From IMG/VR virus record IMGVR_UViG_3300023179_000080, positions 10,284 through 74,283 of that record: a DNA stretch of 64,000 nucleotides. One strand, 5' to 3'. Both the position numbers and the translations under genes were made by a program. Numbering within the stretch: the first letter of the stretch is position 1; every line of letters starts with the position of its first letter. Below are positions 1,720-16,965 of this stretch, in pieces. The notes below the pieces were generated by a model. The model saw nothing but the letters and a program-made list of their open reading frames with translations. It had not been told where the DNA came from and made no database searches. The DNA is from a virus.

Positions 1720-2067
1720 ATGCACATCGAGCCTCCGCACCCCGACCCGTGGGTCACCGCCCTGATCGAGCACCTCCGTTCCGCCCCGCGCAACCTGTGG
1801 GGTGTGGTGCCCCGGGTCACCTGCCGGGACGGCTTCTCCGTGTCGATCCAGGCCTCCCGCCACAGCTACTGTGATCCCCGCACCGACGAGGGCCCGTGGA
1901 GCGCGGTCGAGCTGGGCTACCCGAGCGTGATCGAGCCCCTCATCTGGAGGTGGGCCGAGTCCCCCGGCCGGTGGACCGACACCGTGTATCCATGGGTCCC
2001 GATCGAGGTGGCAGCCGCCGTCATCGAGTGCCACGGGGGAATTGCCGAGAAATCAACCGAAGGTTGA
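1720..2067 (+). CDS. conserved phage hypothetical protein (C.DGFS.S.QAS...YC.PR family)
   Basis: Motifs TCRDGFSVSIQASRHSYCDPR, VELGYPS, TVYPWVP...HGG; promoter TTGTAC..TATACT upstream. Confidence 0.75.
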   Translation: MHIEPPHPDPWVTALIEHLRSAPRNLWGVVPRVTCRDGFSVSIQASRHSYCDPRTDEGPWSAVELGYPSVIEPLIWRWAESPGRWTDTVYPWVPIEVAAAVIECHGGIAEKSTEG

Positions 2068-2119
2068 CACCCCTCGATTTTCTCCCAATATTCTCGAGGG
2101 TCACATCATAGTTATCGAT

Positions 2120-2292
2120 CATGCACCCCCGATACCGCCGCCTCCGCGAATCGATCGCCCAGCTGGGCGACATCGCCTGGGCCGACCGGCGGTCCGATCG
2201 ACCGCCTCACCTACCTCGTCGACGGCCTGGGCCGTCCCAGGAGTGATGAGTCGCTCCTGCGGGCTGCCATTCGCAAGATGCTGGTGGGCTGA
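2120..2292 (+). pseudogene. probable frameshifted small ORF
   Basis: MHPRYRRLRESIAQLGDIAW continues with good codon bias only after a 1-nt shift near 2181 (..PIDRLTYLVDGLGR..KMLVG*). Confidence 0.35.
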
Positions 2293-2298
2293 TCTCCG

Positions 2299-2337
2299 GT
2301 GCAAACCCGGGAGGGTCGGGTGTAGAGTGTATCCATG
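2299..2337 (+). promoter_or_regulatory. early promoter GTGCAA-N18-TAGAGT-N6-ATG
   Basis: Member of repeated motif family. Confidence 0.7.
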
Positions 2338-2622
2338 CTGGACCCCTCGACGATCAGGGACAAGGAAGTTCACCGTGCGGCTCCCACCTATGCCGCCCTC
2401 ACCGCCGCCCTCCGGGAGTTGCGGGACACGGGTCGATTCTACTACGAGTCGACGGGCGAGGGGCAAGTGTTGGAGGCGACTGCTCAACTCGCCCTCGACG
2501 AGCTGGAGGTTGCGATGGCGGAGATGCCCGCCCTCCGCCGGTTCCTCGGGGTGATGCTGATCGCACGGGAGTCGCGCCTCGCTGCCGACCGCCGCCGGGA
2601 GAAGAGCAAGAGCCGGCGATGA
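2335..2622 (+). CDS. hypothetical protein
   Basis: ATG at the fixed distance from the early promoter. Confidence 0.75.
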   Translation: MLDPSTIRDKEVHRAAPTYAALTAALRELRDTGRFYYESTGEGQVLEATAQLALDELEVAMAEMPALRRFLGVMLIARESRLAADRRREKSKSRR

Positions 2623-2808
2623 GGGTAGGTGACGCCCTCGCCCGCCCTGCAGTCGCAATGATCACCCGGGTGGAGGCGGTCCTCACCGAGGGGGGACGGG
2701 CACCGCAGTTGATGATGTTTTCGATGCCACGGCTCGACCTGAGATAAATCTCTTTATTTGCGATGGATTGCCCAAATTCACAGTGGGCATTATATTTAAT
2801 CCACCGAC

Positions 2809-3798
2809 ATGAGCCGTATCCTACGAGAATATATCAAGGGCGTCCTTACAGAAGAAGTGGTCAGCATCCGCCGGGCCGACGGCAGCGAGGGGACGTACGA
2901 TGTCACCTTCGATAAGGCGGGTGGAATCTCTCGCGGTAAGCTGTACAAGTTCTCGAAAGACCAACTGAGCGCGCTCGAGGACTCTCGGGTCAGGGAGTAC
3001 ACGGGCATCTCTGACGCACAGATCCTGGCAAAGATCAGCTCAGTCAAGAAGGCGGGCGGCCCGGTGCTGGCGCCCCTCCCATCCTCCGGATGGCCCTCGG
3101 TCATCGTCGATGCGATGTTGAATTACTGGGGTGACGCGGTCGAGTGGGCCCCCGTCAACCGCACGGGAAAGGGTGAGGCTGCGATGCACCTTGCCTTCGC
3201 GTCGTCCGATGCACACGAGCCCGATTTCGTGTCAGCTGACGGGTCCGTGAAGATGTCGATAAAGCACTTTCAGAACGGCGGTGGCACTGCGAGATCGGGT
3301 GACTCCCCCGCGGTCAAGACCCTCACGATCAAACTGCTCACGACGTTTGACAAGCTCACCGGGTCGAAGCTCATGGGGATGAAGACCGCCTCGGGTGTCG
3401 TCGCACGAGAATACTTGCTCAATGAATTCATGGTGCAGAAGTCGCCGGCCGAGCGGGCCCGTGCGATCAAGAGGGTCGCCGCGGAGGTCAGACCCATCGT
3501 CGACGAGCTGATGACGGAAGTCGCATCAGAGCACGGGGCGATGGGGATCCTCGTCCTCTGCACGGGCAATGCAGAGTGGATGCCCGCCGAGCGCGGCGCG
3601 GAGTTGTTACACCTCGACGCCGTCCGAAATGACCTCCGAGCGCAGTTCTGCTACAGACCCTGGTTGACTGAGAAGCGTAATACGTGGCAGAAAGTGCTGG
3701 ATGAGATGAGCCAAATCACGCCTGCTGCCCTCGGCGGGGCCGCCCCTCCTCCGCCGGCCAAACCCGCACCACCGGGCAAGAAAAGCACGCTTCGCTGA
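2809..3798 (+). CDS. hypothetical protein with N-terminal LREYIK leader; possible PD-(D/E)XK-like core
   Basis: 329 aa; MSRILREYIKGVLTEE; GKGE...EPDF...SIK; ATATTTA upstream. Confidence 0.75.
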   Translation: MSRILREYIKGVLTEEVVSIRRADGSEGTYDVTFDKAGGISRGKLYKFSKDQLSALEDSRVREYTGISDAQILAKISSVKKAGGPVLAPLPSSGWPSVIVDAMLNYWGDAVEWAPVNRTGKGEAAMHLAFASSDAHEPDFVSADGSVKMSIKHFQNGGGTARSGDSPAVKTLTIKLLTTFDKLTGSKLMGMKTASGVVAREYLLNEFMVQKSPAERARAIKRVAAEVRPIVDELMTEVASEHGAMGILVLCTGNAEWMPAERGAELLHLDAVRNDLRAQFCYRPWLTEKRNTWQKVLDEMSQITPAALGGAAPPPPAKPAPPGKKSTLR

Positions 3799-3839
3799 GC
3801 TCTGTGCAAAGGTGACCACCCTCGTAGTAGGGTGGACCC

Positions 3840-4094
3840 ATGATGGACAGCAGACGACCCCTGGGCTTCTACGATCGATACAGTGTCACCGCACCCTCCA
3901 CCTTCCCCCGTGGCTGCCGGGTACGGGTCACGGGTGGGGCATTTGAAGGTGAGGAGGGCATCGTCCTCGACGATGACCCCACACCCCGCCTGCCGGGCAA
4001 CCCGGCAGCGGTCATCTCTCTCCTCAGTGAGGCGTGGCTGGATGAGCCCCTCCGCTTCAACCACCGGGACCTCGCCTGGGCGCCCGCTCCCTGA
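3840..4094 (+). CDS. KOW/SH3-like small protein
   Basis: GCRVRVTGGAFEGEEGIV KOW motif; early promoter at 3804-3833. Confidence 0.7.
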   Translation: MMDSRRPLGFYDRYSVTAPSTFPRGCRVRVTGGAFEGEEGIVLDDDPTPRLPGNPAAVISLLSEAWLDEPLRFNHRDLAWAPAP

Positions 4095-4158
4095 TTTTCC
4101 AGGGACCCTTTAAACTTCTCAGGCCGGAGTCTCTCGACTTACCGGCCTGATCCCTATT

Positions 4159-4611
4159 TCACAGGTGGCTGTCGTCCGGCAGGTTGGCCGACTCCGGATG
4201 GCTCTCATTCCAGGACGCGTCCCCGCCGTGCTTCTTTTGGTACGCGGCGAAGATCTCGGCCGCCGCGCCGGCGCCGATGCCCAGAGCGCCCAGGGCCGAC
4301 ACCGCCATCGGTAGTGTGGACATGTCCGCACCTGATGCTGCTACGATGCCGCCCAGCAGCAGGACCCCCGCCGCCATCACGTTGCCGCCTAGGCCCTCTC
4401 TCAGTCGACGACGGGTGCCTCGGAGACGTCGAGCTCGTGACTCTTTCACCTGGTCACCCAGCGCGTCCTTGAGAGCATCGAGCTGATCCTGCAGCTCTGG
4501 GTCGTCGGCAACGATTCTTTTGACCTCTGCGGGGCTCGGTCCCGACTCGTTGATGACCCTTGAGATTTCTTCCTTAATTACGCGACGAAGCTGTGATAGT
4601 CTGATCCTCAT
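4159..4611 (-). CDS. putative virion/internal protein with LRRVIKEE leader and C-terminal hydrophobic helices
   Basis: MRIRLSQLRRVIKEEISRVINES; GAGGA RBS. Confidence 0.7.
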   Translation of the reverse strand: MRIRLSQLRRVIKEEISRVINESGPSPAEVKRIVADDPELQDQLDALKDALGDQVKESRARRLRGTRRRLREGLGGNVMAAGVLLLGGIVAASGADMSTLPMAVSALGALGIGAGAAAEIFAAYQKKHGGDASWNESHPESANLPDDSHL

Positions 4612-4668
4612 ATTGTTCCTCTTGATGAGCAGTGCTGCTGAGATATATTCCATCACATAAAAAGTTTC

Positions 4669-5130
4669 GTGGGATCGACGTATAGTTATTCCATGCTGTG
4701 GGATCGAGTGGTTCGATATGTCACTGGAGCGCCCGTACCGGGCGAGCTCTTGTACATGCGAGACTTCGGTGCTAGTTGTCCGTTGTGGAAGACGGGAGAG
4801 GGACATGGCGTGATGGGTCGGGTCCCATCGGGTTCGCTGCTGGTCGCCTTGGGGGATGTGACAGATACCCACATCAGAGTCCTAGCACCCTCCGGAACCG
4901 TCGGGTGGATCCACCGCAACTATACCGTGGGCCACCCCCCACCCGGGCTAATCGCCTTTACCGTCAAGGCCCTCGCCCAGCCCGCCCGCAGGGTCATGAT
5001 CCTCGCCGGAGCTTTCCTGTTCGGCGCTGAGATCTTGGGGGTCTCCTCCCCCCGTGACATTGCCACCCCGCCGAGCCACCCACCCCGGGCCCCTGAGGAG
5101 ACACCCCCAGGTCGAGCAGGTGGGCAGTAG
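4669..5130 (+). CDS. SH3-like hypothetical protein
   Basis: IRVLAPSGTVGWIH motif; start uncertain. Confidence 0.55.
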   Translation: MGSTYSYSMLWDRVVRYVTGAPVPGELLYMRDFGASCPLWKTGEGHGVMGRVPSGSLLVALGDVTDTHIRVLAPSGTVGWIHRNYTVGHPPPGLIAFTVKALAQPARRVMILAGAFLFGAEILGVSSPRDIATPPSHPPRAPEETPPGRAGGQ

Positions 5131-5295
5131 ATCTTCCGTGTAGACGGTGCCGTCCTGTATTATACTGAACCTGAGGTGATAGGGTATCTTCTCTATCCGC
5201 AGGATGATGATTGGTGGTCCCTCTGCGGGGACGATTGCGTCCCCCACCCGCAGAGTGTCGACGGTGATCCACCGCATTTTCGTCGACGAACTCAT
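4948..5295 (-). CDS. small beta-barrel hypothetical protein
   Basis: LRVGDAIV..IIILRIEK..FSIIQDGTVY; 3' end overlaps the neighbouring gene. Confidence 0.4.
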   Translation of the reverse strand: MSSSTKMRWITVDTLRVGDAIVPAEGPPIIILRIEKIPYHLRFSIIQDGTVYTEDLLPTCSTWGCLLRGPGWVARRGGNVTGGGDPQDLSAEQESSGEDHDPAGGLGEGLDGKGD

Positions 5296-5350
5296 GTGAT
5301 ATGTAGGAGATCGCAGGCGTTTTTTGTCGACCTGCATACGTATTTGTGTG

Positions 5351-5560
5351 ATGAATAACACCGCTCCCAGCCCATTCGAGGTAGTAGATCGTGAGCTGCT
5401 TGAGGCTGCCCGCAAATATACGGCCGCGGTCCGTGCCGGTGGCGGAGCCGACGCTCTGCCCCGCCTGATGCACGAGTTCCACGCCATCCTAACACGCCAC
5501 GGTTGGACCCATGAAGATTGGGCACGAAAGACTGCGAAGCCGGGTCCAACCGATAAGTGA
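5351..5560 (+). CDS. hypothetical protein
   Basis: ATG 5351; compact gene packing. Confidence 0.55.
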   Translation: MNNTAPSPFEVVDRELLEAARKYTAAVRAGGGADALPRLMHEFHAILTRHGWTHEDWARKTAKPGPTDK

Positions 5561-5592
5561 AAAGTTAGGGACCGCGGTTGTATACTATATCC

Positions 5593-5778
5593 ATGAGGGA
5601 TGGTTACACCCAAGTCCACAATCAAGACCTCGAGATCTTGAAGAAACTTCTCGACGAAAAGATCAGCAAGATTGAGACACTCCTGGGGGAGGCTAGTCGG
5701 GTCGGCGGGGCTCACGATTACTATTCGATGCGCCACAGTGAGCTCGTCGAGATGCGCCGGCGGCTAGTGACGCAATGA
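5593..5778 (+). CDS. hypothetical protein
   Basis: GTGAAA-N18-TATACT-N6-ATG. Confidence 0.7.
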   Translation: MRDGYTQVHNQDLEILKKLLDEKISKIETLLGEASRVGGAHDYYSMRHSELVEMRRRLVTQ

Positions 5779-6095
5779 ACGTCTTCGAACACTCCTTTGG
5801 CTCGTCCCACTACCGCGTCACCATCGTTCCCAAGAGCCACGTCATCGTGGAGCGCTTCGACAACGGCGGCCTGGTCGGCATGCAGCGCTTCGTCCCGGGC
5901 GACCAGGCCGAGTACGACTCCTACAACCTCTCCTACTACGGCCCCATCCTCTCCATCGGGGCCAAGACCATCACCGTCCAGACCACGGGCGGCGGCAAGA
6001 AGATGTTGAAGCCCGACACCTTCGCCTGGCGCAACTGGAACTTCTCCCCCTCCGAGGCGGCTGTCAAGAACTCGGAAACGATGCAGTACATCTGA
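5775..6095 (+). CDS. conserved phage hypothetical protein
   Basis: F..GDQAEYDSYNLSYYGPI..I..KT; strong GC3 bias; ATGA overlap. Confidence 0.8.
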   Translation: MNVFEHSFGSSHYRVTIVPKSHVIVERFDNGGLVGMQRFVPGDQAEYDSYNLSYYGPILSIGAKTITVQTTGGGKKMLKPDTFAWRNWNFSPSEAAVKNSETMQYI

Positions 6096-6811
6096 TGAAG
6101 ACCTTCGACATCGACGCCCTGGTCCCGGACTACAAGGGGTCGTTCCACCTCCCAAAGCATCCCACGGCGGAGCAGAGGAAGATGCACGAGCTGTCCCGCC
6201 GGGTGCACACCACTTTCGGATACGGGTCTCCCCACTTGCGCCCAGGTGTCAAACCCGAGAAGGTGCTGGACTGGCGCCAGCTGGAGCAGAGAACCGAGGA
6301 GCTTCGCTTCAAGTGGAAGTCGGCCTCCAATGCCTACTGGTCTGCCTTGCGTGAGGCGTACGGGAAGAGAAAGAAGCGCGACACCCTCTACATCTTCATC
6401 AACTCGGACTGGCTCGTCTCGTACAAGGGCGGAGACTCCTACAGCTACGAGGACTCTCGAAGCCTCGTCGCGTGTAAGATTGCCGCCCCTCGAGACGGCG
6501 GTGAGTTCAGGGTCCTCAAGGCCGACGACGGAGGACGCCGCATCGGCCGGCTCCTGGCACGGGAGAGGTCATGCCGCGCGGCGTATCAAGTCTACGACCG
6601 AGTCCTGAAGCGTGCCCTGTCGGACAGGATTAGAGTGCATCTGGGAGAGATCCACGAAGAAGTGGGAGATCACCAGCCGTACTACGAACCGCAGGTCTTC
6701 CTCATCGAGAACGGGGGCAGGGTTCGAGTCGCCCAGTCCACGACAAGCGGTGGGATCTTTTGGATCGAAGGCGAAGTTCTGCTCACACCTGGGTCTATAT
6801 CTATAGTGTGA
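6095..6811 (+). CDS. hypothetical protein
   Basis: 238 aa; TGATG coupling. Confidence 0.75.
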   Translation: MKTFDIDALVPDYKGSFHLPKHPTAEQRKMHELSRRVHTTFGYGSPHLRPGVKPEKVLDWRQLEQRTEELRFKWKSASNAYWSALREAYGKRKKRDTLYIFINSDWLVSYKGGDSYSYEDSRSLVACKIAAPRDGGEFRVLKADDGGRRIGRLLARERSCRAAYQVYDRVLKRALSDRIRVHLGEIHEEVGDHQPYYEPQVFLIENGGRVRVAQSTTSGGIFWIEGEVLLTPGSISIV

Positions 6812-7152
6812 AGGTTCCGACTGGGTCTATGTGGAGGGTCGTCGCATCGAATATTGCACCCCATATGTCCCAGTCCTTCAACGGTATCTGGGTGACTCCT
6901 GAGCCCCGACCGCCCATGACCTTCCACCCCGTCGGCGGTGAACACTACCTAGCTCCCGGGACGATCATCGTCGTGGGTGATACAGTGCGTAGAGGCCTGG
7001 AGGGCAATCTGAAGCACCAAGAGTTCGTCCGGGTCTTCTTGCCCTGCGTGGGTTGGGTCAACAGGGTGTACTTCAATGATTCTCTACGACGACTCGAGCG
7101 GGTCGATGACGAAACAACGATCGAGAATGGCACACAGGCAAATGAAAAGTAA
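6808..7152 (+). CDS. SH3-like hypothetical protein (paralog of 20358..20672)
   Basis: VPTGSMWRV...HQEFVRVFLPCVGWVNRVYFN..LERV. Confidence 0.7.
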   Translation: MKVPTGSMWRVVASNIAPHMSQSFNGIWVTPEPRPPMTFHPVGGEHYLAPGTIIVVGDTVRRGLEGNLKHQEFVRVFLPCVGWVNRVYFNDSLRRLERVDDETTIENGTQANEK

Positions 7153-7498
7153 GGGTAACAAGGTCAAGAAGGGCGACGTCTACCTCATGTCGACCGGTTC
7201 CTCGGTCTTCTACATCCGCTCCCAACAGGAGCTGGATGCCCTGTACGAGGACGACCGCCGCCGGGGCGACACGCTTGACTCAGCGGGTGAACCCCGTATC
7301 CACAACCGCCAAGGTCGGATCCACTTCACAGAACCCACCACGGTCATGGTCGTCGGCCTGACCGGTGCACAGTGGGGCTCTTGGTACAACAAGCCCGTCG
7401 GACTGGTGCGAGCAGTTGTCACTTCCGGTCCCTCCCTGGGAAGGGAGGTCACGGTGACGAAGGCGGCATTGTTGGCTTCCGTGCAAAGTCACGGCTGA
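7142..7498 (+). CDS. hypothetical protein
   Basis: GC3-biased ORF. Confidence 0.65.
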   Translation: MKSKGNKVKKGDVYLMSTGSSVFYIRSQQELDALYEDDRRRGDTLDSAGEPRIHNRQGRIHFTEPTTVMVVGLTGAQWGSWYNKPVGLVRAVVTSGPSLGREVTVTKAALLASVQSHG

Positions 7499-7519
7499 AA
7501 GTGGTATAGTAAAACCATG
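7481..7519 (+). promoter_or_regulatory. early leaderless promoter (type example GTGCAAAGTCACGGCTGAAAGTGGTATAGTAAAACCATG)
   Basis: Same geometry at 7706, 7892, 8355, 8769, 9749, 13991, 14204, 15455, 17800, 19130, 35031, 37333. Confidence 0.85.
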
Positions 7520-7678
7520 AAGAACGAAGCCATCTACGAGATCGCATACTACACCCCCAAGGGCAAGCCCGGCCGGAAGCAGGTCCGTCAGTCACGGATG
7601 GTCCAGGAAGCTCGGAAGCTCCACGAGTCCGGGTACCACTGCATCCAGATCTCCGCCTACCCCCTGATCGAGGCCTGA
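7517..7678 (+). CDS. 53-aa hypothetical protein (not in ORF track)
   Basis: MKNEAIYEIAYYTPKGKPGRKQV...LHESGY; directly behind early promoter. Confidence 0.7.
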   Translation: MKNEAIYEIAYYTPKGKPGRKQVRQSRMVQEARKLHESGYHCIQISAYPLIEA

Positions 7679-7693
7679 CCCCCTTCGGGGGTC
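7677..7693 (+). terminator. GC hairpin with TTCG tetraloop
   Basis: GACCCCC-TTCG-GGGGTC right after the stop codon. Confidence 0.5.
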
Positions 7694-7741
7694 TCCCCCG
7701 AACCAGTGCAAAGTTCAACCGCAAAGTGGTATAGTTAATCC

Positions 7742-7909
7742 ATGGACATCATCAAGTATCGCATCACCTACCGCGACGCCATGGGCATGCCTGGGTTCAA
7801 GGATGTGCTTGCATCCCAAGTTTACAGGGCAGTGCAGAACCTCACCGACAAGGGTTACACCATGGTTGTAATCAATCCTGAGCCTCACATTGTGCAAAGT
7901 CATTCCTGA
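7742..7909 (+). CDS. 55-aa hypothetical protein (not in ORF track), paralog of 7517..7678
   Basis: MDIIKYRITYRDAMGMPGFKDV...LTDKGY; behind early promoter. Confidence 0.7.
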   Translation: MDIIKYRITYRDAMGMPGFKDVLASQVYRAVQNLTDKGYTMVVINPEPHIVQSHS

Positions 7910-7927
7910 AAAGGGTATAGTAGTCTC

Positions 7928-8350
7928 ATGAGCACACACTCCTACATCGGCATCCAGAATGACGAAGGCTCCATCCACGCGATCTACTGTCACTACGACG
8001 GCTACCTCGAAGGCGTCGGCGCGGACCTCCTCCAACACTGGTCGGACCCGGAGAAGCTGGGGCGGCTCATCGATCTGGGAGACCTCTCGGGCCTCGGTGA
8101 CGACCTAGACACCACCCAGGCCTATGAGCGGGACTTCGGCGAGTCGAACGCCGGTTGCCGAGGCTTCTCCGACCTGGAGGAGCTTCGCTTCGAGGCCATG
8201 GGTGCGTACTCCTACGTCCTCACCCCGTCCGGTTGGATCTACTCCAACAACGGGGAGCGGTTCCGTCCCTTCCCGGCTGCCTTCGTGGCCAAGTATGCTC
8301 CCCAGCCTGAGCAGCTCTCCCTCCCGTTCCCCGCTGCCGAGCAGCACTGA
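7928..8350 (+). CDS. conserved phage protein (IYCHxDGY family)
   Basis: MSTHSYIG..IYCHYDGYLEGVG..L..GDLS. Confidence 0.8.
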   Translation: MSTHSYIGIQNDEGSIHAIYCHYDGYLEGVGADLLQHWSDPEKLGRLIDLGDLSGLGDDLDTTQAYERDFGESNAGCRGFSDLEELRFEAMGAYSYVLTPSGWIYSNNGERFRPFPAAFVAKYAPQPEQLSLPFPAAEQH

Positions 8351-8390
8351 GTCCGTGCAAAGTCACGATTGAAAGATGTATACTGAGAAC

Positions 8391-8765
8391 ATGATCAAGA
8401 ACGCCATCACGATCAAGGACCTGTCCAACACCTACCTCCACGCCAAGTTCAACGAGGTGGTCACCCTCTTCCGGGAGCTCAGCATCGCCACCGGCCTCGG
8501 TGCCGACGTCCTCATCCTGGAGGAGTTCGGCACCACCTTGGTCCAGAACTCGTGGAACGATGACGGGGGCTTCTACGTCCGTTACCGCCTCCATCCCCTG
8601 TACTCCCACATGCCCAAGCTGGTGGACGCCTCTCGGCTGGCCCAGGTCCGCTTCGCGGGCATCTTCGGCAAGTCCCAGTTCAAGGTCGACTTCGAGAACC
8701 CCGAGGACCGCAACGGGAACATCACGGTGTCCGTGGCCACGTGCTCTCACTCCATCGGCGACTGA
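8391..8765 (+). CDS. hypothetical protein
   Basis: Early promoter; GC3 bias. Confidence 0.75.
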   Translation: MIKNAITIKDLSNTYLHAKFNEVVTLFRELSIATGLGADVLILEEFGTTLVQNSWNDDGGFYVRYRLHPLYSHMPKLVDASRLAQVRFAGIFGKSQFKVDFENPEDRNGNITVSVATCSHSIGD

Positions 8766-8804
8766 GCGGTGCAAAGTTCAACGTGGAAAGTGTATACTGA
8801 ATCC

Positions 8805-8963
8805 ATGGAACACGACGAGTTCAAAGACGACTGGCAGTACCTTCCATCACCTGAAGAACACACTCGGGAGTGCTGGGAGTGGTTCAGGGACATGATTGAA
8901 GATCGCCCGCATGCTGGACGGACAGTGACTGACGCTGTACGATTCCTACAGCTCGCTGTATAG
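8805..8963 (+). CDS. hypothetical protein
   Basis: Early promoter at 8769. Confidence 0.6.
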   Translation: MEHDEFKDDWQYLPSPEEHTRECWEWFRDMIEDRPHAGRTVTDAVRFLQLAV

Positions 8964-8971
8964 TTAATCGC

Positions 8972-9142
8972 ATGAAGACACACCTAAGCAAGTTATTCAG
9001 AGATTCTCGCGGTGCCACGATGGTCGAGTACGGCCTCATGCTCGCCCTCATCCTCGTCCTTGGATACATCGGCTATACACAGCTCGGCGCAAAGGTCAGC
9101 AAGGCCGGCAGCGACGCAACCGGTGCATTCGGCAGCCACTGA
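8972..9142 (+). CDS. flp: Flp/Fap (Tad, type IVc) pilin, 56 aa (not in ORF track)
   Basis: MKTHLSKLFRDSRG|ATMVEYGLMLALILVLGYIGYTQLGAKV...: prepilin G-1, E+5, Y+6 Flp motif and hydrophobic helix. Confidence 0.85.
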   Translation: MKTHLSKLFRDSRGATMVEYGLMLALILVLGYIGYTQLGAKVSKAGSDATGAFGSH

Positions 9143-9148
9143 CAGACC

Positions 9149-9460
9149 ATGAAGAAATTCTTCATAGCATCATTTCTCGTAGTAGCCTCTTGCGGAGACG
9201 ATGTTCGGCCCAAGAGCATCGATCCCATTGGGAGCAAGGATGCCTCTTTCGCTTACGTTGATTCCGGTCCGGTGGATCCTTGCGACCCACCTGTGGAAGG
9301 CTGTCCGTGCCTCGACGTGGGTGTTGGTGAACAGTTTTATTGCGGCGTTGTCTATCGAACCAGCGGCGATCATGTCGATTGTTCGAAGGGCTATCGAACC
9401 TGTCAAGATGACGGTGGGTGGGGTCCATGCCTGGGCGACACGGTCTGGGCAGGTGATTGA
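9149..9460 (+). CDS. Cys-rich lipoprotein, myxobacterial type
   Basis: Lipobox VVAS-C; EGCPC...CSKGYRTCQDDGGWGPCLG. Confidence 0.75.
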   Translation: MKKFFIASFLVVASCGDDVRPKSIDPIGSKDASFAYVDSGPVDPCDPPVEGCPCLDVGVGEQFYCGVVYRTSGDHVDCSKGYRTCQDDGGWGPCLGDTVWAGD

Positions 9461-9479
9461 CGTATTATCTATTGTTTAC

Positions 9480-9527
9480 GCAAAAACAAAAAGAAAGGAT
9501 ATCGGCCTTGTGCCGTAAGTTATTCAG
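9480..9527 (+). mobile_element. 48-bp IS200/IS605-family LE/RE fusion remnant (PATE-like scar)
   Basis: TTTAC|GCAAAAACAAAAAGAAAGGATATCGGCCTTGTGCCGTAAGTTATTCAG|; left part matches the left end and right part the right end of the tnpB element at 15746-16928. Confidence 0.85.
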
Positions 9528-9552
9528 CATCAAGAATATGCTGAGTGAAGGT

Positions 9553-9777
9553 ATGCCCTCATACTCGGGATTGAGGACGATGCCTCAGGACGATCCTGAG
9601 CAGAGTTTCTTGCGTCAGACGCTTGCAGCAAATCAAGGACAAGAGGAAGTCGTCGTCCTCAAGGTGTCCCACCGGGTGGAAGACCCAGCTCTCAAGGCTG
9701 AGCTCCTCCGTCCCCGTAACATTGACGATTTTTTGAGTAACGCTGGGGGTGCAAAGCACCGCGGCGATGGAGTATAA
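9553..9777 (+). CDS. hypothetical protein
   Basis: ORF; start uncertain. Confidence 0.5.
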   Translation: MPSYSGLRTMPQDDPEQSFLRQTLAANQGQEEVVVLKVSHRVEDPALKAELLRPRNIDDFLSNAGGAKHRGDGV

Positions 9778-9784
9778 CTGTTAC

Positions 9785-9967
9785 ATGATCATCTTTCAAG
9801 TCTCTCCCGAAGACGTCACACGTAGTTCGACTCTCGACAAGAACGACATCGGCAAGTGGTGTTTCACCGCAAACGGTTGCGTCATGGGGTTCTTTGATAC
9901 CCGTGACGAAGCCGAAGACGCTCTGTCTCGCCGACGTGTCCATCACATGAATGCGGAGTACCGATGA
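9785..9967 (+). CDS. hypothetical protein
   Basis: Early promoter at 9749; GFFDTRDEAE motif. Confidence 0.7.
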   Translation: MIIFQVSPEDVTRSSTLDKNDIGKWCFTANGCVMGFFDTRDEAEDALSRRRVHHMNAEYR

Positions 9968-10218
9968 GAGGCGCCGTCTCAATTAAGAAGATCGACAAAC
10001 ACGGATGGTTGGGTAGGACCCTGCATCCTGAACCTCGCCACGAAGGTAGGATGGCTCTAGTCGAGTCAATCGAAAAAGTTGATCTGGACGAGGACGACAC
10101 TGTTGACTACTATCTGATTCGAGCAACCACCCTTACGGGTGAACGTCTCGAGCTGATGGAACATGAGATTGAATGGTTGGGCCCAGATTCTGAGCAGCCC
10201 GGATATACAACTGTTTGA
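9964..10218 (+). CDS. hypothetical protein
   Basis: ATGA overlap. Confidence 0.65.
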   Translation: MRGAVSIKKIDKHGWLGRTLHPEPRHEGRMALVESIEKVDLDEDDTVDYYLIRATTLTGERLELMEHEIEWLGPDSEQPGYTTV

Positions 10219-10221
10219 GTT

Positions 10222-10509
10222 GTGTTTATTTTTCATGTCACTCGAGTTGATCTTCCAGACTGGGATGAATACATCGATTTTGTAATGGTTGCACCGACGG
10301 CTGAAGTCGCCAAATATACACACCCATCAGCAAAAGACGCAAACATCTACAAGTGGTCTGATGAGACCCAGTCTTGGGTCTATGTTGACACAGGCAACTA
10401 CGCTCCACACAATGGGTGGGTAGATCCCAGTAAAGTCGGCGTCAGACTCATAGGGATAGCTCACGACGTCACTACACGAATAATCACGACAAACTACAGA
10501 TCAGGATAA
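10222..10509 (+). CDS. hypothetical phage protein
   Basis: DWDEYIDFVMVA...HP...W..V.VRLIG.A pattern. Confidence 0.65.
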   Translation: MFIFHVTRVDLPDWDEYIDFVMVAPTAEVAKYTHPSAKDANIYKWSDETQSWVYVDTGNYAPHNGWVDPSKVGVRLIGIAHDVTTRIITTNYRSG

Positions 10510-10511
10510 CA

Positions 10512-10703
10512 ATGGCAATTAAGAAAGAAATTCTCGACCTCGATAGCCTCATCGCTCGTGTCAAATACACTGAAATGTCAGCCTCACTTCGTGCTGAGCT
10601 CCTTGAAGCACTGGACGCATTCCGCGCTGTGAGAGATAAACAAACACCCAATCACGCTGCTACGACCTCGCACGAAGCTAATGTTCGTTCTTCACGTAAA
10701 TAG
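10512..10703 (+). CDS. hypothetical protein
   Basis: AGGA RBS. Confidence 0.55.
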   Translation: MAIKKEILDLDSLIARVKYTEMSASLRAELLEALDAFRAVRDKQTPNHAATTSHEANVRSSRK

Positions 10704-10941
10704 CTGGGGGTTTCATTAGTGACCGCTGACTGAGATCGTCGCCCACCCAAGTGACCAATTCACCCAACACGTACGTGCCCAAGTCCCTATAGACTTCGTA
10801 CACAACGTCACCCTTTAAGACACGAAATTTGCGCGATCCATCAAGCTGTTCTTCGACCGTAAGGACAAGAACGAGTTGATCTCCTTCCCAGATGAGATCG
10901 CCTTGGCGCACGACGGCCATGGAGAGCCAATTGTCCTCCAT
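10678..10941 (-). CDS. small beta-barrel hypothetical protein
   Basis: VRQGDLIW..LVLVL..FRVLKGDVVY; ATACTTA upstream. Confidence 0.6.
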   Translation of the reverse strand: MEDNWLSMAVVRQGDLIWEGDQLVLVLTVEEQLDGSRKFRVLKGDVVYEVYRDLGTYVLGELVTWVGDDLSQRSLMKPPAIYVKNEH

Positions 10942-10980
10942 GGCAATAAGTATCAAAATCGCTAACGAACTTGATTAAAA

Positions 10981-11193
10981 ATGAAGATGCGAAGTATTCA
11001 ACCAGGTCAAACTGTCACGCTCTCCGAACAAAACGAATCCGCCGGGCTAGCAGATGATATTCTGCCCAAGACCGGGTCCAACAAGTTTACTCCTCAGATG
11101 GTTGGGACTGTGTTGGAGACTCGCACGTTTGTTCGTGTTATTGTAGGCACGACAGTCGGGTGGATCGATGAGACAAAGATCAAGATGGCATAG
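10981..11193 (+). CDS. SH3-like small protein
   Basis: IQPGQTV...VGTVLE..VRVIVGTTVGWI. Confidence 0.65.
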   Translation: MKMRSIQPGQTVTLSEQNESAGLADDILPKTGSNKFTPQMVGTVLETRTFVRVIVGTTVGWIDETKIKMA

Positions 11194-11334
11194 CCGAGAT
11201 TCGATTGATGGCTACTATCATCCACGCTTTGGTCATTCTATCACAGGCTGTTGCGGTCGTGGGTGCAGCGGTCGCGTGCGGCATCATCTTGATGTCGTTT
11301 GCTGAAACATTAGATCACCGTGTACGGAGCAAAC

Positions 11335-11577
11335 ATGACGACACAAAACGACCCAAATAAACCCAAGGTATCAATATTCACTTACGTCGCGACTAAGCTA
11401 TTTGCAGCAAGCTTGGTGCTAGCGATTAAATCTTTCATCGCAGAGTTTGCATGGAACTTGGGTGCTGGGGCACTTTTTAGCCTACCCAACATCAGTTTTA
11501 AAACTGCTTTTGCATTAGTGCTGCTGAGTGATGTACTATTCAAGGGAGTCACGAAGAGCATACCCGAGCTCGAATAA
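11335..11577 (+). CDS. small membrane protein
   Basis: Two hydrophobic segments, WN..LF.LP.ISF..AF. Confidence 0.65.
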   Translation: MTTQNDPNKPKVSIFTYVATKLFAASLVLAIKSFIAEFAWNLGAGALFSLPNISFKTAFALVLLSDVLFKGVTKSIPELE

Positions 11578-11604
11578 TTAGTTTCTTGTCGCATAGTTTA
11601 AACT

Positions 11605-11829
11605 ATGCGGAGAACGATCGACACTCCGTATTTTCGACGAGGGGATCTCGTTTCGTGGGAAGAATTCGATGTTGATAGCTTCAGCTCAGTCCCTAAGATA
11701 GGGATACTGCTGAGGTTCTACGAAGACTTCCAATACGAGACTCACGCTTTTGAAGTGTTGTTGACTACGGGTGACGTAGTGTACAAGGTGCTGCCCCTCG
11801 ACGATCTTGAAGTTTTATCTTCTGTGTAG
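11605..11829 (+). CDS. SH3-like small protein
   Basis: FRRGDLVSW..IGILL..EVLLTTG. Confidence 0.65.
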   Translation: MRRTIDTPYFRRGDLVSWEEFDVDSFSSVPKIGILLRFYEDFQYETHAFEVLLTTGDVVYKVLPLDDLEVLSSV

Positions 11830-11858
11830 AATCACATGTTGTAGTATAATTTGTCGTT

Positions 11859-12218
11859 ATGGCTCTTACGCCGGGTGAGATACAGCTTCTGCAGAGAGAA
11901 GTTGAGCATCTTCGAGAAGAAAACTTGACTCTAAGGGGAATGTTGGCCCGCTCGACAGCGTCGTGCTATTACTGCAGGCTTCCAGCCGGAAAAACGTCTG
12001 AATGCTCCCGTGGGTTTCCAGGTTGTCTCAGGATGGAAGATGCCATTCACGATCCCGGGTTCCTTGCGGGTGAGACCATCACCGCCGATGACGACGTCTT
12101 TGATAGACCCACGGTGCCTGACCTTGTTGCCCTCGACGCAGGACCATTCAAGAAGATCCCAGACACTGGTGTCTCAAGGATCGATCTCCACAATATTGAC
12201 CCTGATGAAGATGAATAA
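11859..12218 (+). CDS. hypothetical Zn-binding/coiled-coil protein
   Basis: CYYC...C.RGFPGC; TATAAT upstream. Confidence 0.65.
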   Translation: MALTPGEIQLLQREVEHLREENLTLRGMLARSTASCYYCRLPAGKTSECSRGFPGCLRMEDAIHDPGFLAGETITADDDVFDRPTVPDLVALDAGPFKKIPDTGVSRIDLHNIDPDEDE

Positions 12219-12402
12219 GATGAAAGTATACGCAATCGACGAAGGTAAGAAGCCCAGCCGCATATTGGTCATGGTAGAATCAAGCGCGACCGAGAAGCCG
12301 CGGTGTGTAGCAGCAGTTCACACGAGTGAGGCTTATCTTGCGATTAAGAGGCTGATGGAAAGCGAAAATTCATCGATCGTACAGCATACAGTATATACAT
12401 GA
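12211..12402 (+). CDS. hypothetical protein
   Basis: Fills the gap between adjacent genes. Confidence 0.5.
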   Translation: MNKMKVYAIDEGKKPSRILVMVESSATEKPRCVAAVHTSEAYLAIKRLMESENSSIVQHTVYT

Positions 12403-15490: not shown

Positions 15491-15724
15491 ATGAACAAAG
15501 ACGCTCTCAAAATTGCTCTGGCACTGGAAGCTTCTGCGCGGCTCGTCGAGTCGGGTCGCAAAGACGTGGAGGTCCATTTCACAGAAGCTGAAGTGTTGTG
15601 GAGCGCGGCAGAATCCTTGGGTCTCGAAAAGGTGGTCGACAGCTACCTCTTTGGCTGGCAGATGGAGTCACGTAAGGCTGATTGTACAAATGCCGGCGTC
15701 GTCCCTGCTTCAAACATGAACTGA
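15491..15724 (+). CDS. hypothetical protein
   Basis: Early promoter at 15455. Confidence 0.7.
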   Translation: MNKDALKIALALEASARLVESGRKDVEVHFTEAEVLWSAAESLGLEKVVDSYLFGWQMESRKADCTNAGVVPASNMN

Positions 15725-15745
15725 CATGTGTGCAAAGTTCGGCCG

Positions 15746-16928
15746 CTGAATAACTTACGGCACAAGGCCGTAAGGTTCGAGGGTAGTCTTGCCTTCATCG
15801 ACTTTACCCTTTAGGGACTTCAGCTCGGATGATTGTGTCATCCTTCGGCCCTTCCTGCGAATCTCTTTCTTCACAGGATCGATCTTTGGGCGTAATGCGA
15901 TGTTGAAAGCTGCATTTACGTCCGCATGATCAATGTGTTCACAGTGCAAACAGTGAAACACTTTTCCATTTCTGCTCTCTTTATCAACTACTCCGCAACG
16001 AGAACATGAAGTTGATGTCCAAGCAGGATCAACAACATTCAACTCGACACCTTGCTCCTTAGCCTTGTAAGTGAGAAGCATTCTCACCTGATAGAATGGC
16101 CAAGAGTTCAAGGTGTGATTTCCTTGTTTACGGTACTTCTTCGTACAATCTTTTCTAATCCCAGAAAGATCTTCTAGCTTAATTCCAACTCCACTTTTCT
16201 TTGCTTCTTTGACTATTTTAGTTGTGATCTTGTGAATCGCATCAGTCGTCTTCCTTCTCTCACGATCCTTGATCTTCTTCAGCTGTGACCACTGCTTCTT
16301 CTCTTGCAGGTTCTGCCTGATATTCTTATACTTCTTCTTCAAGAAAGGAATCTGTTTTCCAAACTTCTGAACCTTGCCTGTAAGCGGATTTGCCACAACA
16401 ATGGAGTGAGAAGTTGAGTTAAGATCGATGCCGATGAAACTTTTAGGTTCATCGGCCTGTTGATCGGGGAAAGTCACGGAAACATAAGCCCATTTCTGAT
16501 CAATCTCGACTTGATTGAGTTTTGTCCAACCAGAAGGAAACCAACAGCGAAATTCTGCGTTGAGGCTTGGAATTCTTATTTTTCTAGTTTCTAGATCAAA
16601 CTTTAGATTTTGACCAGGAACAGTTAGCTTCACTCTCTTCGGGTTGATTGATTTGATCTTCTTGTTCAGTCCATATTTTCTAACGATCTGATTAGCAATC
16701 TCAGATTTTAGGCCAATGTGTTTGACGACTTTTGTTGAGACAAGACCATTTTCAAGAGCAAACTGCGCAACTTTAACTGCCTTCTCAAAGAGAGAAGAAT
16801 CAAAGTTCACACCATGCTTTACCTTGAACGTCTTGATCATCTCCATGATAAGTATCTTTACTTAAGAAAAATTTTAACAAAAATTCATGATATGGCACAA
16901 GGCCGATATCCTTTCTTTTTGTTGATGT
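15746..16928 (-). mobile_element. IS200/IS605-family (IS1341-like, tnpB-only) insertion sequence
   Basis: AT-rich island; subterminal hairpins CGGCCTTGTGCC at both ends; LE guide AAAG with TTTAC target; RE guide GAAC with TCAG end. Confidence 0.85.
15755..16846 (-). CDS. tnpB: TnpB RNA-guided endonuclease
   Basis: RuvC I GIDLN, RuvC II LEDL, TSTSCSRCG..CLHC Zn finger, RuvC III HADVNAAFNI. Confidence 0.93.
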   Translation of the reverse strand: MEMIKTFKVKHGVNFDSSLFEKAVKVAQFALENGLVSTKVVKHIGLKSEIANQIVRKYGLNKKIKSINPKRVKLTVPGQNLKFDLETRKIRIPSLNAEFRCWFPSGWTKLNQVEIDQKWAYVSVTFPDQQADEPKSFIGIDLNSTSHSIVVANPLTGKVQKFGKQIPFLKKKYKNIRQNLQEKKQWSQLKKIKDRERRKTTDAIHKITTKIVKEAKKSGVGIKLEDLSGIRKDCTKKYRKQGNHTLNSWPFYQVRMLLTYKAKEQGVELNVVDPAWTSTSCSRCGVVDKESRNGKVFHCLHCEHIDHADVNAAFNIALRPKIDPVKKEIRRKGRRMTQSSELKSLKGKVDEGKTTLEPYGLVP

Positions 16929-16965
16929 GTAAAGCATAGTGTGGGACCTCAGGGTGGAAAATGTG

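Follow-up and report, generated by a model that had tools for sequence, protein, structure and literature searches.

The 64,000-nt stretch of DNA analyzed here (the window) covers bases 10284–74283 of the linear 74,283-bp IMG/VR virus record IMGVR_UViG_3300023179_000080 and carries two adjacent small genes on the plus strand, one for a 56-aa prepilin of the Flp (Tad, or type IVc) class and the other for a 103-aa cysteine-rich lipoprotein. Our reading, to which we assign a probability of about 0.6, is that the two genes form an envelope cassette built from two genes of the bacterial host, yielding a pilin that is processed and assembled by the host and a lipoprotein placed in the host envelope. 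With this cassette, the phage probably re-dresses the surface of the infected cell. Phage-borne pilins are already known, and the pairing with a second, unlinked envelope gene of the host is the new element; we have not found an earlier case of such coupling, though no literature search was aimed at the pairing.

The window is phage DNA, as follows from its genes for baseplate wedge subunits, tail fibre, ATP-dependent DNA ligase, RtcB, and a sigma factor, all identified by PHROG matches, and from its origin in an IMG/VR virus record; further PHROG matches are to an HNH endonuclease, a TnpB-type transposase, and glycosyltransferases. At 74 kb, the record covers part of a much larger tailed phage, and CheckV estimates its completeness at approximately 23%. 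Among GenBank phages, there was no DNA match for positions 7000–12000 of the window and no tblastn match to the pilin at E ≤ 1, while in IMG/VR neither the pilin (searched both as a single sequence and as a profile) nor the two genes upstream of it had any relative, and these searches yielded no sister phage with an empty site.

The initial annotation of this locus, made from the sequence alone, reported an open reading frame (ORF) of 56 aa with the prepilin motif RG/ATMVEYGL (here and below, the slash marks the predicted cleavage site), and this ORF is indeed present on the plus strand at 8972–9142. It reads DSRG/ATMVEYGL followed by a hydrophobic helix. The Flp motif has been defined as a short leader ending with Gly, followed by xxxxEY and about 20 hydrophobic residues, in a prepilin of 50–80 aa (PMC12075869); accordingly, the phage ORF has a leader ending with Gly, then ATMVEY, then GLMLALILVLGYIGY, with the total length of 56 aa. 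A search with the Flp_Fap profile, proposed in the initial annotation as a check, did produce a match to the Pfam family PF04964 (E 3e-6), but its score of 27.4 bits is below the gathering cut-off of 32.2. The same is true for P0005, a bona fide pilin from the tad locus of a bacterial metagenome-assembled genome (MAG), which scores 28.0 bits, so low scores seem to be typical of this lineage as a whole. No PHROG or NCBIfam match was obtained for the phage pilin.

In a large protein collection, 23 homologs of the pilin were found, with identity up to 90% (BLASTP local alignments) and E-values down to 1e-21, the closest being P0001/P0179, and for 22 of them PF04964 is listed by the source database. 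All 16 invariant and all nine near-invariant columns of the family are kept in the phage protein, including D11, G14, the stretch from A15 through Y20, and the hydrophobic core, whereas family members differ from one another mainly in the leader and over the last ~14 residues. The family profile matches two solved structures in the Protein Data Bank (PDB), namely, PilA from Caulobacter (8u1k, E 7e-5) and a Flp family pilin (8u2b, E 7.5e-5). Both alignments begin at residue 1 of the mature chains and therefore support cleavage after Gly14; PilA of Caulobacter also has a 14-aa leader, and the C-terminus of Tad pilins points outward (PMC11067988). The phylogeny, also proposed as a check, placed the phage copy inside the clade holding the MAG tad-locus pilin, though the tree, built on 61 columns, is mostly unresolved. 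Taken together, these comparisons indicate that the ORF at 8972–9142 is a genuine Flp prepilin of the major type. As a side observation, two long proteins, P0182 (602 aa) and P0184 (1153 aa, named isoleucyl-tRNA synthetase), fall in 90%-identity clusters of 55-aa pilins; probably, these are gene calls running a neighbour gene into a pilin ORF, which hints that some bacterial pilin copies adjoin ileS.

Among species-representative genomes, the closest pilin is the above-mentioned P0005 (78% identity), encoded on a contig (L002) of a Myxococcales MAG, and from RG to the C-terminus 40 out of 44 residues are identical between the two proteins. The pilin gene of the MAG (3284–3463 of the contig) is directly followed by a Peptidase_A24 gene (3520–4059, E 1.6e-15) and, further downstream, by genes for TadE (3987–4565), a 573-aa protein, and a TadE-like protein (6301–6807), while upstream of it are another Flp-like ORF and a gene for a zinc-ribbon/double-FHA protein. 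The layout of the entire tad locus (1819–7833) is reminiscent of the FHA-rich Kil system and the minor-pilin “tip” sets of Myxococcus (PMC8460266, PMC12075869).

In the 44-codon stretch from RG to the C-terminus, the phage and MAG genes are 86% identical at the DNA level and differ by 13 synonymous and five non-synonymous substitutions, yielding dN 0.052, dS 0.563, and dN/dS 0.09. Nucleotide homology to the host locus is confined to positions 9008–9142 (86.7%) and stops at the end of the ORF. The G+C content of third codon positions (GC3) reaches 97% in the MAG gene, compared to 72% in the phage gene. V33I and G40A are the sole amino acid differences before the C-terminal tail; the other two of the four lie in this outward-pointing tail, which is identical to that of a natural variant, P0004. 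On this evidence, the pilin appears to have been captured from a freshwater Myxococcota host, to be maintained by strong purifying selection, and to be resident in the phage, with its codon usage shifted toward that of the phage. An assembly chimera was rejected, since the homology ends with the ORFs, the codon usage is shifted, and phage promoters are present on both sides; likewise, a fresh unselected capture does not fit the dN/dS of 0.09 together with the difference in GC3.

The protein encoded next to the pilin was initially described as a myxobacterial Cys-rich lipoprotein, and this description holds: the nearest Atlas clusters, all unnamed, are mostly from Myxococcota, and an ortholog exists in the Myxococcales MAG. 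Its signal peptide comprises the n-region MKK, the hydrophobic core FFIASFLV, and the lipobox V-A-S-C15, followed by a Pro-rich linker; the lipobox was judged by pattern, that is, a charged n-region, a hydrophobic core, and [LVI][ASTVI][GAS]C within the first ~35 residues. In addition to the lipobox Cys15, the mature domain contains seven cysteines. Five close homologs have 56–81% identity to the phage protein (E 1e-28 to 1e-41), with 73–81% for the closest ones, P0024/P0195 and P0025/P0196, and the whole family comprises 226 representatives at E ≤ 1e-3 in a library of 1.8 billion proteins. About half of the listed representatives are proteins of ~100 aa with the same layout, while in the others, up to 1,784 aa long, the module occurs once at the extreme N-terminus (residues ~10–110); two larger proteins, including P0045 (3,251 aa), match it as internal repeats. 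When eight large module-bearing proteins were searched against Pfam and NCBIfam, PA14/GLEYA domains were found in two (P0042, P0087), one had a weak, sub-threshold match to CarbopepD_reg_2, and five had no Pfam match.

The lipobox Cys15, four further cysteines, and one glycine are invariant in all 38 aligned members of the lipoprotein family, while 90% or more of these members retain Cys45, Cys52, and Cys54. The resulting pattern, C-x6-CPC...C...C...C...W-G-x-C in a domain of ~60 aa, is complete in the phage lipoprotein with respect to all invariant and near-invariant columns. In the AlphaFold2 model, residues 41–100 have pLDDT above 90 and form a long beta-hairpin. No similar fold was detected, the best Foldseek match in PDB having E 1.6 and VIA-align giving no Z ≥ 2 among 48,161 chains, and there was no usable match in Pfam, NCBIfam, or PHROG (the latter at E ≤ 0.01). 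A lead to a MopE-like copper protein (Atlas score 0.77) was considered too weak and was not used. The lipoprotein seems to be the lipid anchor plus the N-terminal Cys-rich module of large myxobacterial proteins, and nothing more.

The MAG that carries the tad-locus pilin (G001) also holds a full-length lipoprotein ortholog, P0029, found on a 96-kb contig by a profile search (136 bits), whereas a single-sequence scan of the genome contigs found none. P0029 lies between genes for an EamA transporter and a glutaredoxin-rhodanese protein, with genes for an FMN dehydrogenase, MacB/FtsX, a metallophosphatase, and an MFS protein around. Since the glutaredoxin-rhodanese neighbour recurs in a second genome (G094), the lipoprotein gene is an ordinary chromosomal one. 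In both these genomes, this large neighbour is convergent to the lipoprotein gene (10130–12343, minus strand, in L060; 2–1492, plus strand, in L061), and the arrangement possibly reflects a redox link for the disulfide-rich module or is a mere conserved neighbourhood. In the order to which the MAG belongs, 17 of the 151 genomes have a lipoprotein match. The core of the phage lipoprotein is 71% identical to the ortholog, with pN 0.20 and pS saturated at 0.93, so no dN/dS ratio is given. The GC3 of its gene is 52%, that is, the codon usage is fully phage-like, that of the pilin gene being less so.

As stated in the initial annotation, the lipoprotein ORF starts 6 nt after the pilin stop (TGA at 9140–9142, the next ATG at 9149). 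No terminator-like site is seen between the two genes or after them, and their translation is likely coupled. In three bacterial genomes (G001, G094, and G114), the lipoprotein gene and the three or four Flp paralogs are on different contigs or megabases apart, and five high-GC (65–72%) metagenome loci with the lipoprotein hold no pilin. As the two genes are thus unlinked in every bacterial locus examined, the cassette seems to have been assembled by the phage itself from two separate host genes. Of the two, the lipoprotein has diverged further, and its codon usage is fully phage-like, that of the pilin being less so; this suggests that the genes were captured at separate times.

The host very probably belongs to Myxococcota, with a freshwater myxobacterium being the probable candidate, as two independent host-derived genes point to the same freshwater Myxococcales lineage; this provides a firm host clue for a large phage that could not be placed otherwise. 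The GC content of the window is 51%, while that of the contigs of the Myxococcales MAG is 65–68%.

The cassette lies in a block of plus-strand genes with recurrent promoters. The pattern GTGCAA-N17-19-TAnnnT has 17 matches in the window compared to 0.9 expected, 15 of them on the plus strand, and in 13 of these 15 the ATG follows exactly 6 nt after the −10 element, suggesting leaderless or near-leaderless messages. Sites of this family precede small genes and the genes for RtcB, DNA ligase, and the HNH protein, and hence the family marks a class of non-structural genes. The TATAGT hexamer noticed in the initial annotation just upstream of the pilin does exist (8959–8964, 7 nt before the pilin ATG), though not as a stand-alone −10 element: it belongs to this 15-member phage promoter family, with the −35 half poorly kept (CTGTAC has three out of six matches to GTGCAA). 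The stretch from the −10 element to the ATG, TATAGTTAATCGCATG, equals that of the family member at 7706 (TATAGTTAATCCATG) save one extra base. Neither a canonical sigma-70 promoter nor an intrinsic terminator was found around the cassette. Two modes of expression may be considered for the pilin gene, a weak promoter of its own or read-through from the site at 8769, which is a possible source of such transcription. Given that both genes belong to the plus-strand non-structural block and use its promoter and start geometry, they are probably made together with replication-type genes rather than with virion genes.

The absence of other Tad genes, claimed for the window in the initial annotation, extends to the whole 74,283-bp record, where Peptidase_A24, TadE, T2SSE, T2SSF, and Secretin gave no match at E ≤ 0.1, while positive controls responded. 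With no machinery in 74 kb, the pilin likely depends on the peptidase and the Tad machine of the host. The phage prepilin would insert into the host inner membrane, be cut after Gly14 by the host A24 peptidase of the TadV/CpaA type, and be polymerised by the host Tad machine, alone or mixed with the host pilin; the lipoprotein would be produced from the same mRNA, acquire its lipid anchor, and move to the envelope. How the pilin is processed and assembled, when the cassette is expressed, and what the phage gains from it are what we infer here; as to assembly, a second pilin copy expressed ectopically is known to enter the native Kil pilus of Myxococcus (PMC12075869).

For the payoff, our tentative preference is that the phage supplies authentic subunits, so that during infection the Tad pili remain functional, either in adhesion or in contacting prey in the Kil manner; this we regard as plausible at somewhat above one chance in three. 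The lean toward it, rather than toward a changed phage receptor, is slight and is due to the near-identity of the phage pilin to the host one and the strong purifying selection.

Several points weigh against the host-derived envelope cassette and its proposed role. The score of the pilin with Flp_Fap is under the Pfam gathering cut-off, as given above. The pilin promoter scores 1.3 with the positional weight matrix of the family, compared to 14–39 for the family members (rank 49 among 64,000 positions), which makes the level and timing of expression uncertain. Tad genes might be present elsewhere in the phage, as the record covers about 23% of its genome. Nothing ties the lipoprotein family to Tad systems in bacteria, and the “cassette” could be mere adjacency. 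There is no known reason for a phage to need working Tad pili. The host is uncultured, and all functional statements are inferred; moreover, the four differences are counted from the MAG pilin rather than from the allele of the true host, and may be either neutral or the whole point.

The initial annotation proposed superinfection exclusion or an altered adhesion or predation of the host, all of which are conjectural effects. Its main idea is also the strongest competitor, somewhat unlikely in our estimate, namely, receptor change leading to superinfection exclusion: the phage pilin would replace or dilute the host pilin, so that pilus-binding phages, including those of its own kind, no longer adsorb, and the co-expressed lipoprotein would, with a similarly low likelihood, shield another surface receptor, acting from the inner side of the outer membrane in the way that Llp of phage T5 acts on FhuA. 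There are direct precedents for both halves. Prophage-encoded FimU built into the type IV pilus of Pseudomonas blocks tip-binding phages, and PilA-like genes are present in virulent phages as well (PMC12952977), while T5 makes its small lipoprotein Llp early and thereby blocks its receptor (PMC9586334; bioRxiv 10.64898/2026.03.26.714494). The location of two out of four differences from the MAG pilin in the C-terminal tail, which faces outward in Tad pilins (PMC11067988), is also consistent with this explanation, as is the fact that the leader and the tail are the variable parts of the family, and the pair of a pilin and a lipoprotein fits a “surface” theme. However, phage FimU proteins are highly diverse (PMC12952977), whereas the phage Flp pilin is strongly conserved (dN/dS 0.09), and its tail, being identical to that of P0004, may just be the allele of the true host. 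Mixed filaments would still display host subunits unless the host expression stops, and the lipoprotein, having no PHROG match, cannot be linked to any known phage family, exclusion lipoproteins included, nor does it have a structural match.

We consider it quite unlikely that the pilin and the lipoprotein are one device, a two-part “surface swap” run early in infection by a virulent giant phage. In such a swap, the anchor-only lipoprotein would compete with the large module-bearing surface proteins, some of which carry PA14-type sugar-binding domains, for a docking or export site, and the adhesin coat of the host would be stripped or reshuffled while the phage pilin re-populates the Tad pilus. 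If true, it could lead to the exclusion of competitors, or turn prey-contact or attached behaviour into a state favouring phage production.

Interference with the host pili is improbable. The initial annotation had suggested that the pilin could poison host pili, and a dominant-negative pilin, or titration of the prepilin peptidase or the platform, might shut the Tad pili down; for truncated PilA-like proteins of phages, an inhibitory effect on assembly has been proposed (PMC12952977), and an over-expressed small membrane pilin could saturate the peptidase. However, a blocker is expected to lose conservation at the assembly interface, whereas the phage pilin is full-length, with only V33I and G40A before the tail. 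With all invariant positions kept, four out of 44 residues differing, and a dN/dS of 0.09, the observed pattern is that of an assembly-competent subunit, and poisoning is thus not supported.

Even less probable is that the two genes are passenger DNA, that is, pieces of host sequence acquired recently and of no use to the phage. Large phages do pick up host genes, and a 45-bp scar, which looks like a fusion of IS200/605-type ends, lies just downstream as a trace of local DNA traffic. Against this, 13 synonymous differences are observed in the pilin gene versus five non-synonymous ones, the codon usage has moved toward that of the phage, the homology is trimmed exactly to the ORF, the −10/ATG geometry is of the phage type, and two separate host loci have been joined by a 6-nt gap with both frames intact and all key residues kept. 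Finally, a small hydrophobic membrane peptide of the phage resembling Flp by chance, an idea that could draw on the Pfam score below the gathering threshold and the lack of PHROG and NCBIfam matches, is hardly credible and is refuted for practical purposes by the 78–90% identity to proteins named Flp pilin by their sources, the equally low score (28.0 bits) of the ortholog in the MAG tad locus, and the profile match to solved Tad pilins.

The preferred reading, a host-derived pilin and lipoprotein joined by the phage, can be compared with several known systems. With cellular Flp major pilins (PF04964; 8u1k, 8u2b; P0005), the phage protein shares the length of 56 aa, the 14-aa leader, G/xxxxEY, and a single amphipathic helix; unlike them, it is encoded by a phage with no Tad machinery nearby, has GC3 of 72% rather than 97%, and uses the promoter and start arrangement of the phage. 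P-FimU and phage PilA-like proteins from Pseudomonas and Xylella phages (Sztanko et al., Cell Rep 2026, PMC12952977) are also phage-borne pilus subunits dependent on the host machine, and occur in virulent phages too. They are of type IVa, have globular domains, are very diverse, and have been shown to block adsorption, whereas the phage Flp pilin is of the Tad type and strongly conserved; that study does not mention Flp or Tad. A gene for a Flp-family pilin in a phage genome has been found in silico in the Vibrio harveyi prophages phi345 and phiGANI1709 (mSphere 2025, PMC12482185). There, however, the phages are temperate, and the Flp homologs are listed as homologs of virulence factors at 41% identity, and neither a linked lipoprotein nor any analysis of their selection or origin is reported.

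The Tad-like Kil system of the myxobacterium Myxococcus xanthus (PMC8460266, PMC12075869) includes several Flp pilins along with FHA proteins, and in the MAG contig L002 an FHA gene adjoins the pilins as well; at the same time, KilP is 97 aa long compared to 56 aa of the phage pilin, the likeness being in locus features. For the lipoprotein, the closest parallel is T5 Llp (PMC9586334), likewise a small phage lipoprotein that is targeted to the host envelope and has its gene in a non-structural group, but no sequence or fold similarity between the two was detected, and the protein described here copies a host family and has seven cysteines in its mature domain, so the analogy is functional only.

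Our observations do not introduce a new principle, as phage-borne pilins are already in the literature and the function here is predicted. They add the Tad/Flp class, found in a giant phage of the virulent type, to the recently demonstrated strategy by which phages insert their own subunits into host pili. The 490-bp cassette is a small test system for asking if Tad or Kil-type pili can be reprogrammed by a phage, and could also reveal the role of the Cys-rich lipoprotein module, widespread but unnamed, at the N-terminus of myxobacterial surface proteins.

Table 1. Coordinates of the cassette and of the promoter family in the window.
Feature	Position	Strand	Evidence or remark
Flp (Tad / type IVc) prepilin gene, 56 aa	8972..9142	+	motif, Pfam, homologs, conservation, PDB profile match
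Prepilin leader, 14 aa, ends RG	8972-9013	+	
Mature pilin, 42 aa, begins ATMVEY	9014-9139	+	
Pilin stop codon TGA	9140-9142	+	
Spacer CAGACC, 6 nt	9143..9148	+	no Shine-Dalgarno-like run
Small Cys-rich lipoprotein gene, 103 aa	9149..9460	+	lipobox, homologs, AlphaFold2 (AF2) model
Lipobox VAS-C, Cys15 codon	9191-9193	+	
Disulfide-type domain, aa 41-100, Cys45, 52, 54, 65, 78, 85, 94	9269-9448	+	
Degenerate promoter copy: -35 CTGTAC, 18-nt spacer, -10 TATAGT	8935..8964	+	putative function
Full promoter-family member GTGCAAAGT...N...TATACT	8769..8798	+	upstream of 52-aa ORF ending at 8963
Phage promoter family GTGCAAAGT-N-(G)GTATAGT	2299, 3804, 7481, 7706, 7892, 8355, 8769, 13746, 13991, 14204, 17800, 19130, 35031, 37333	+	
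Weaker promoter-family sites	5557, 15455, 17559	+	

Two further features of the neighbourhood should be mentioned. Just upstream of the cassette, at 7928–8765 of the plus strand, there are two genes, one for a 140-aa member of phrog_1987 and the other an ORF of ~125 aa. At 61–64%, their GC content greatly exceeds the 51% averaged over the window, and their GC3 of 84–93% is near host-like codon usage; the phage may have acquired these genes more recently.

Directly after the lipoprotein gene, a stretch of ~45 bp (9487–9530, plus strand) corresponds, in reverse complement, to the two outer ends of the tnpB element located at ~15730–16930, the ends having been compared at 15715–15790 and 16870–16945. 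In this stretch, the two ends are joined at their common hairpin core GGCACAAGGCCG, and it looks like a solo-end mini-element or a deletion scar of the IS200/605 type.

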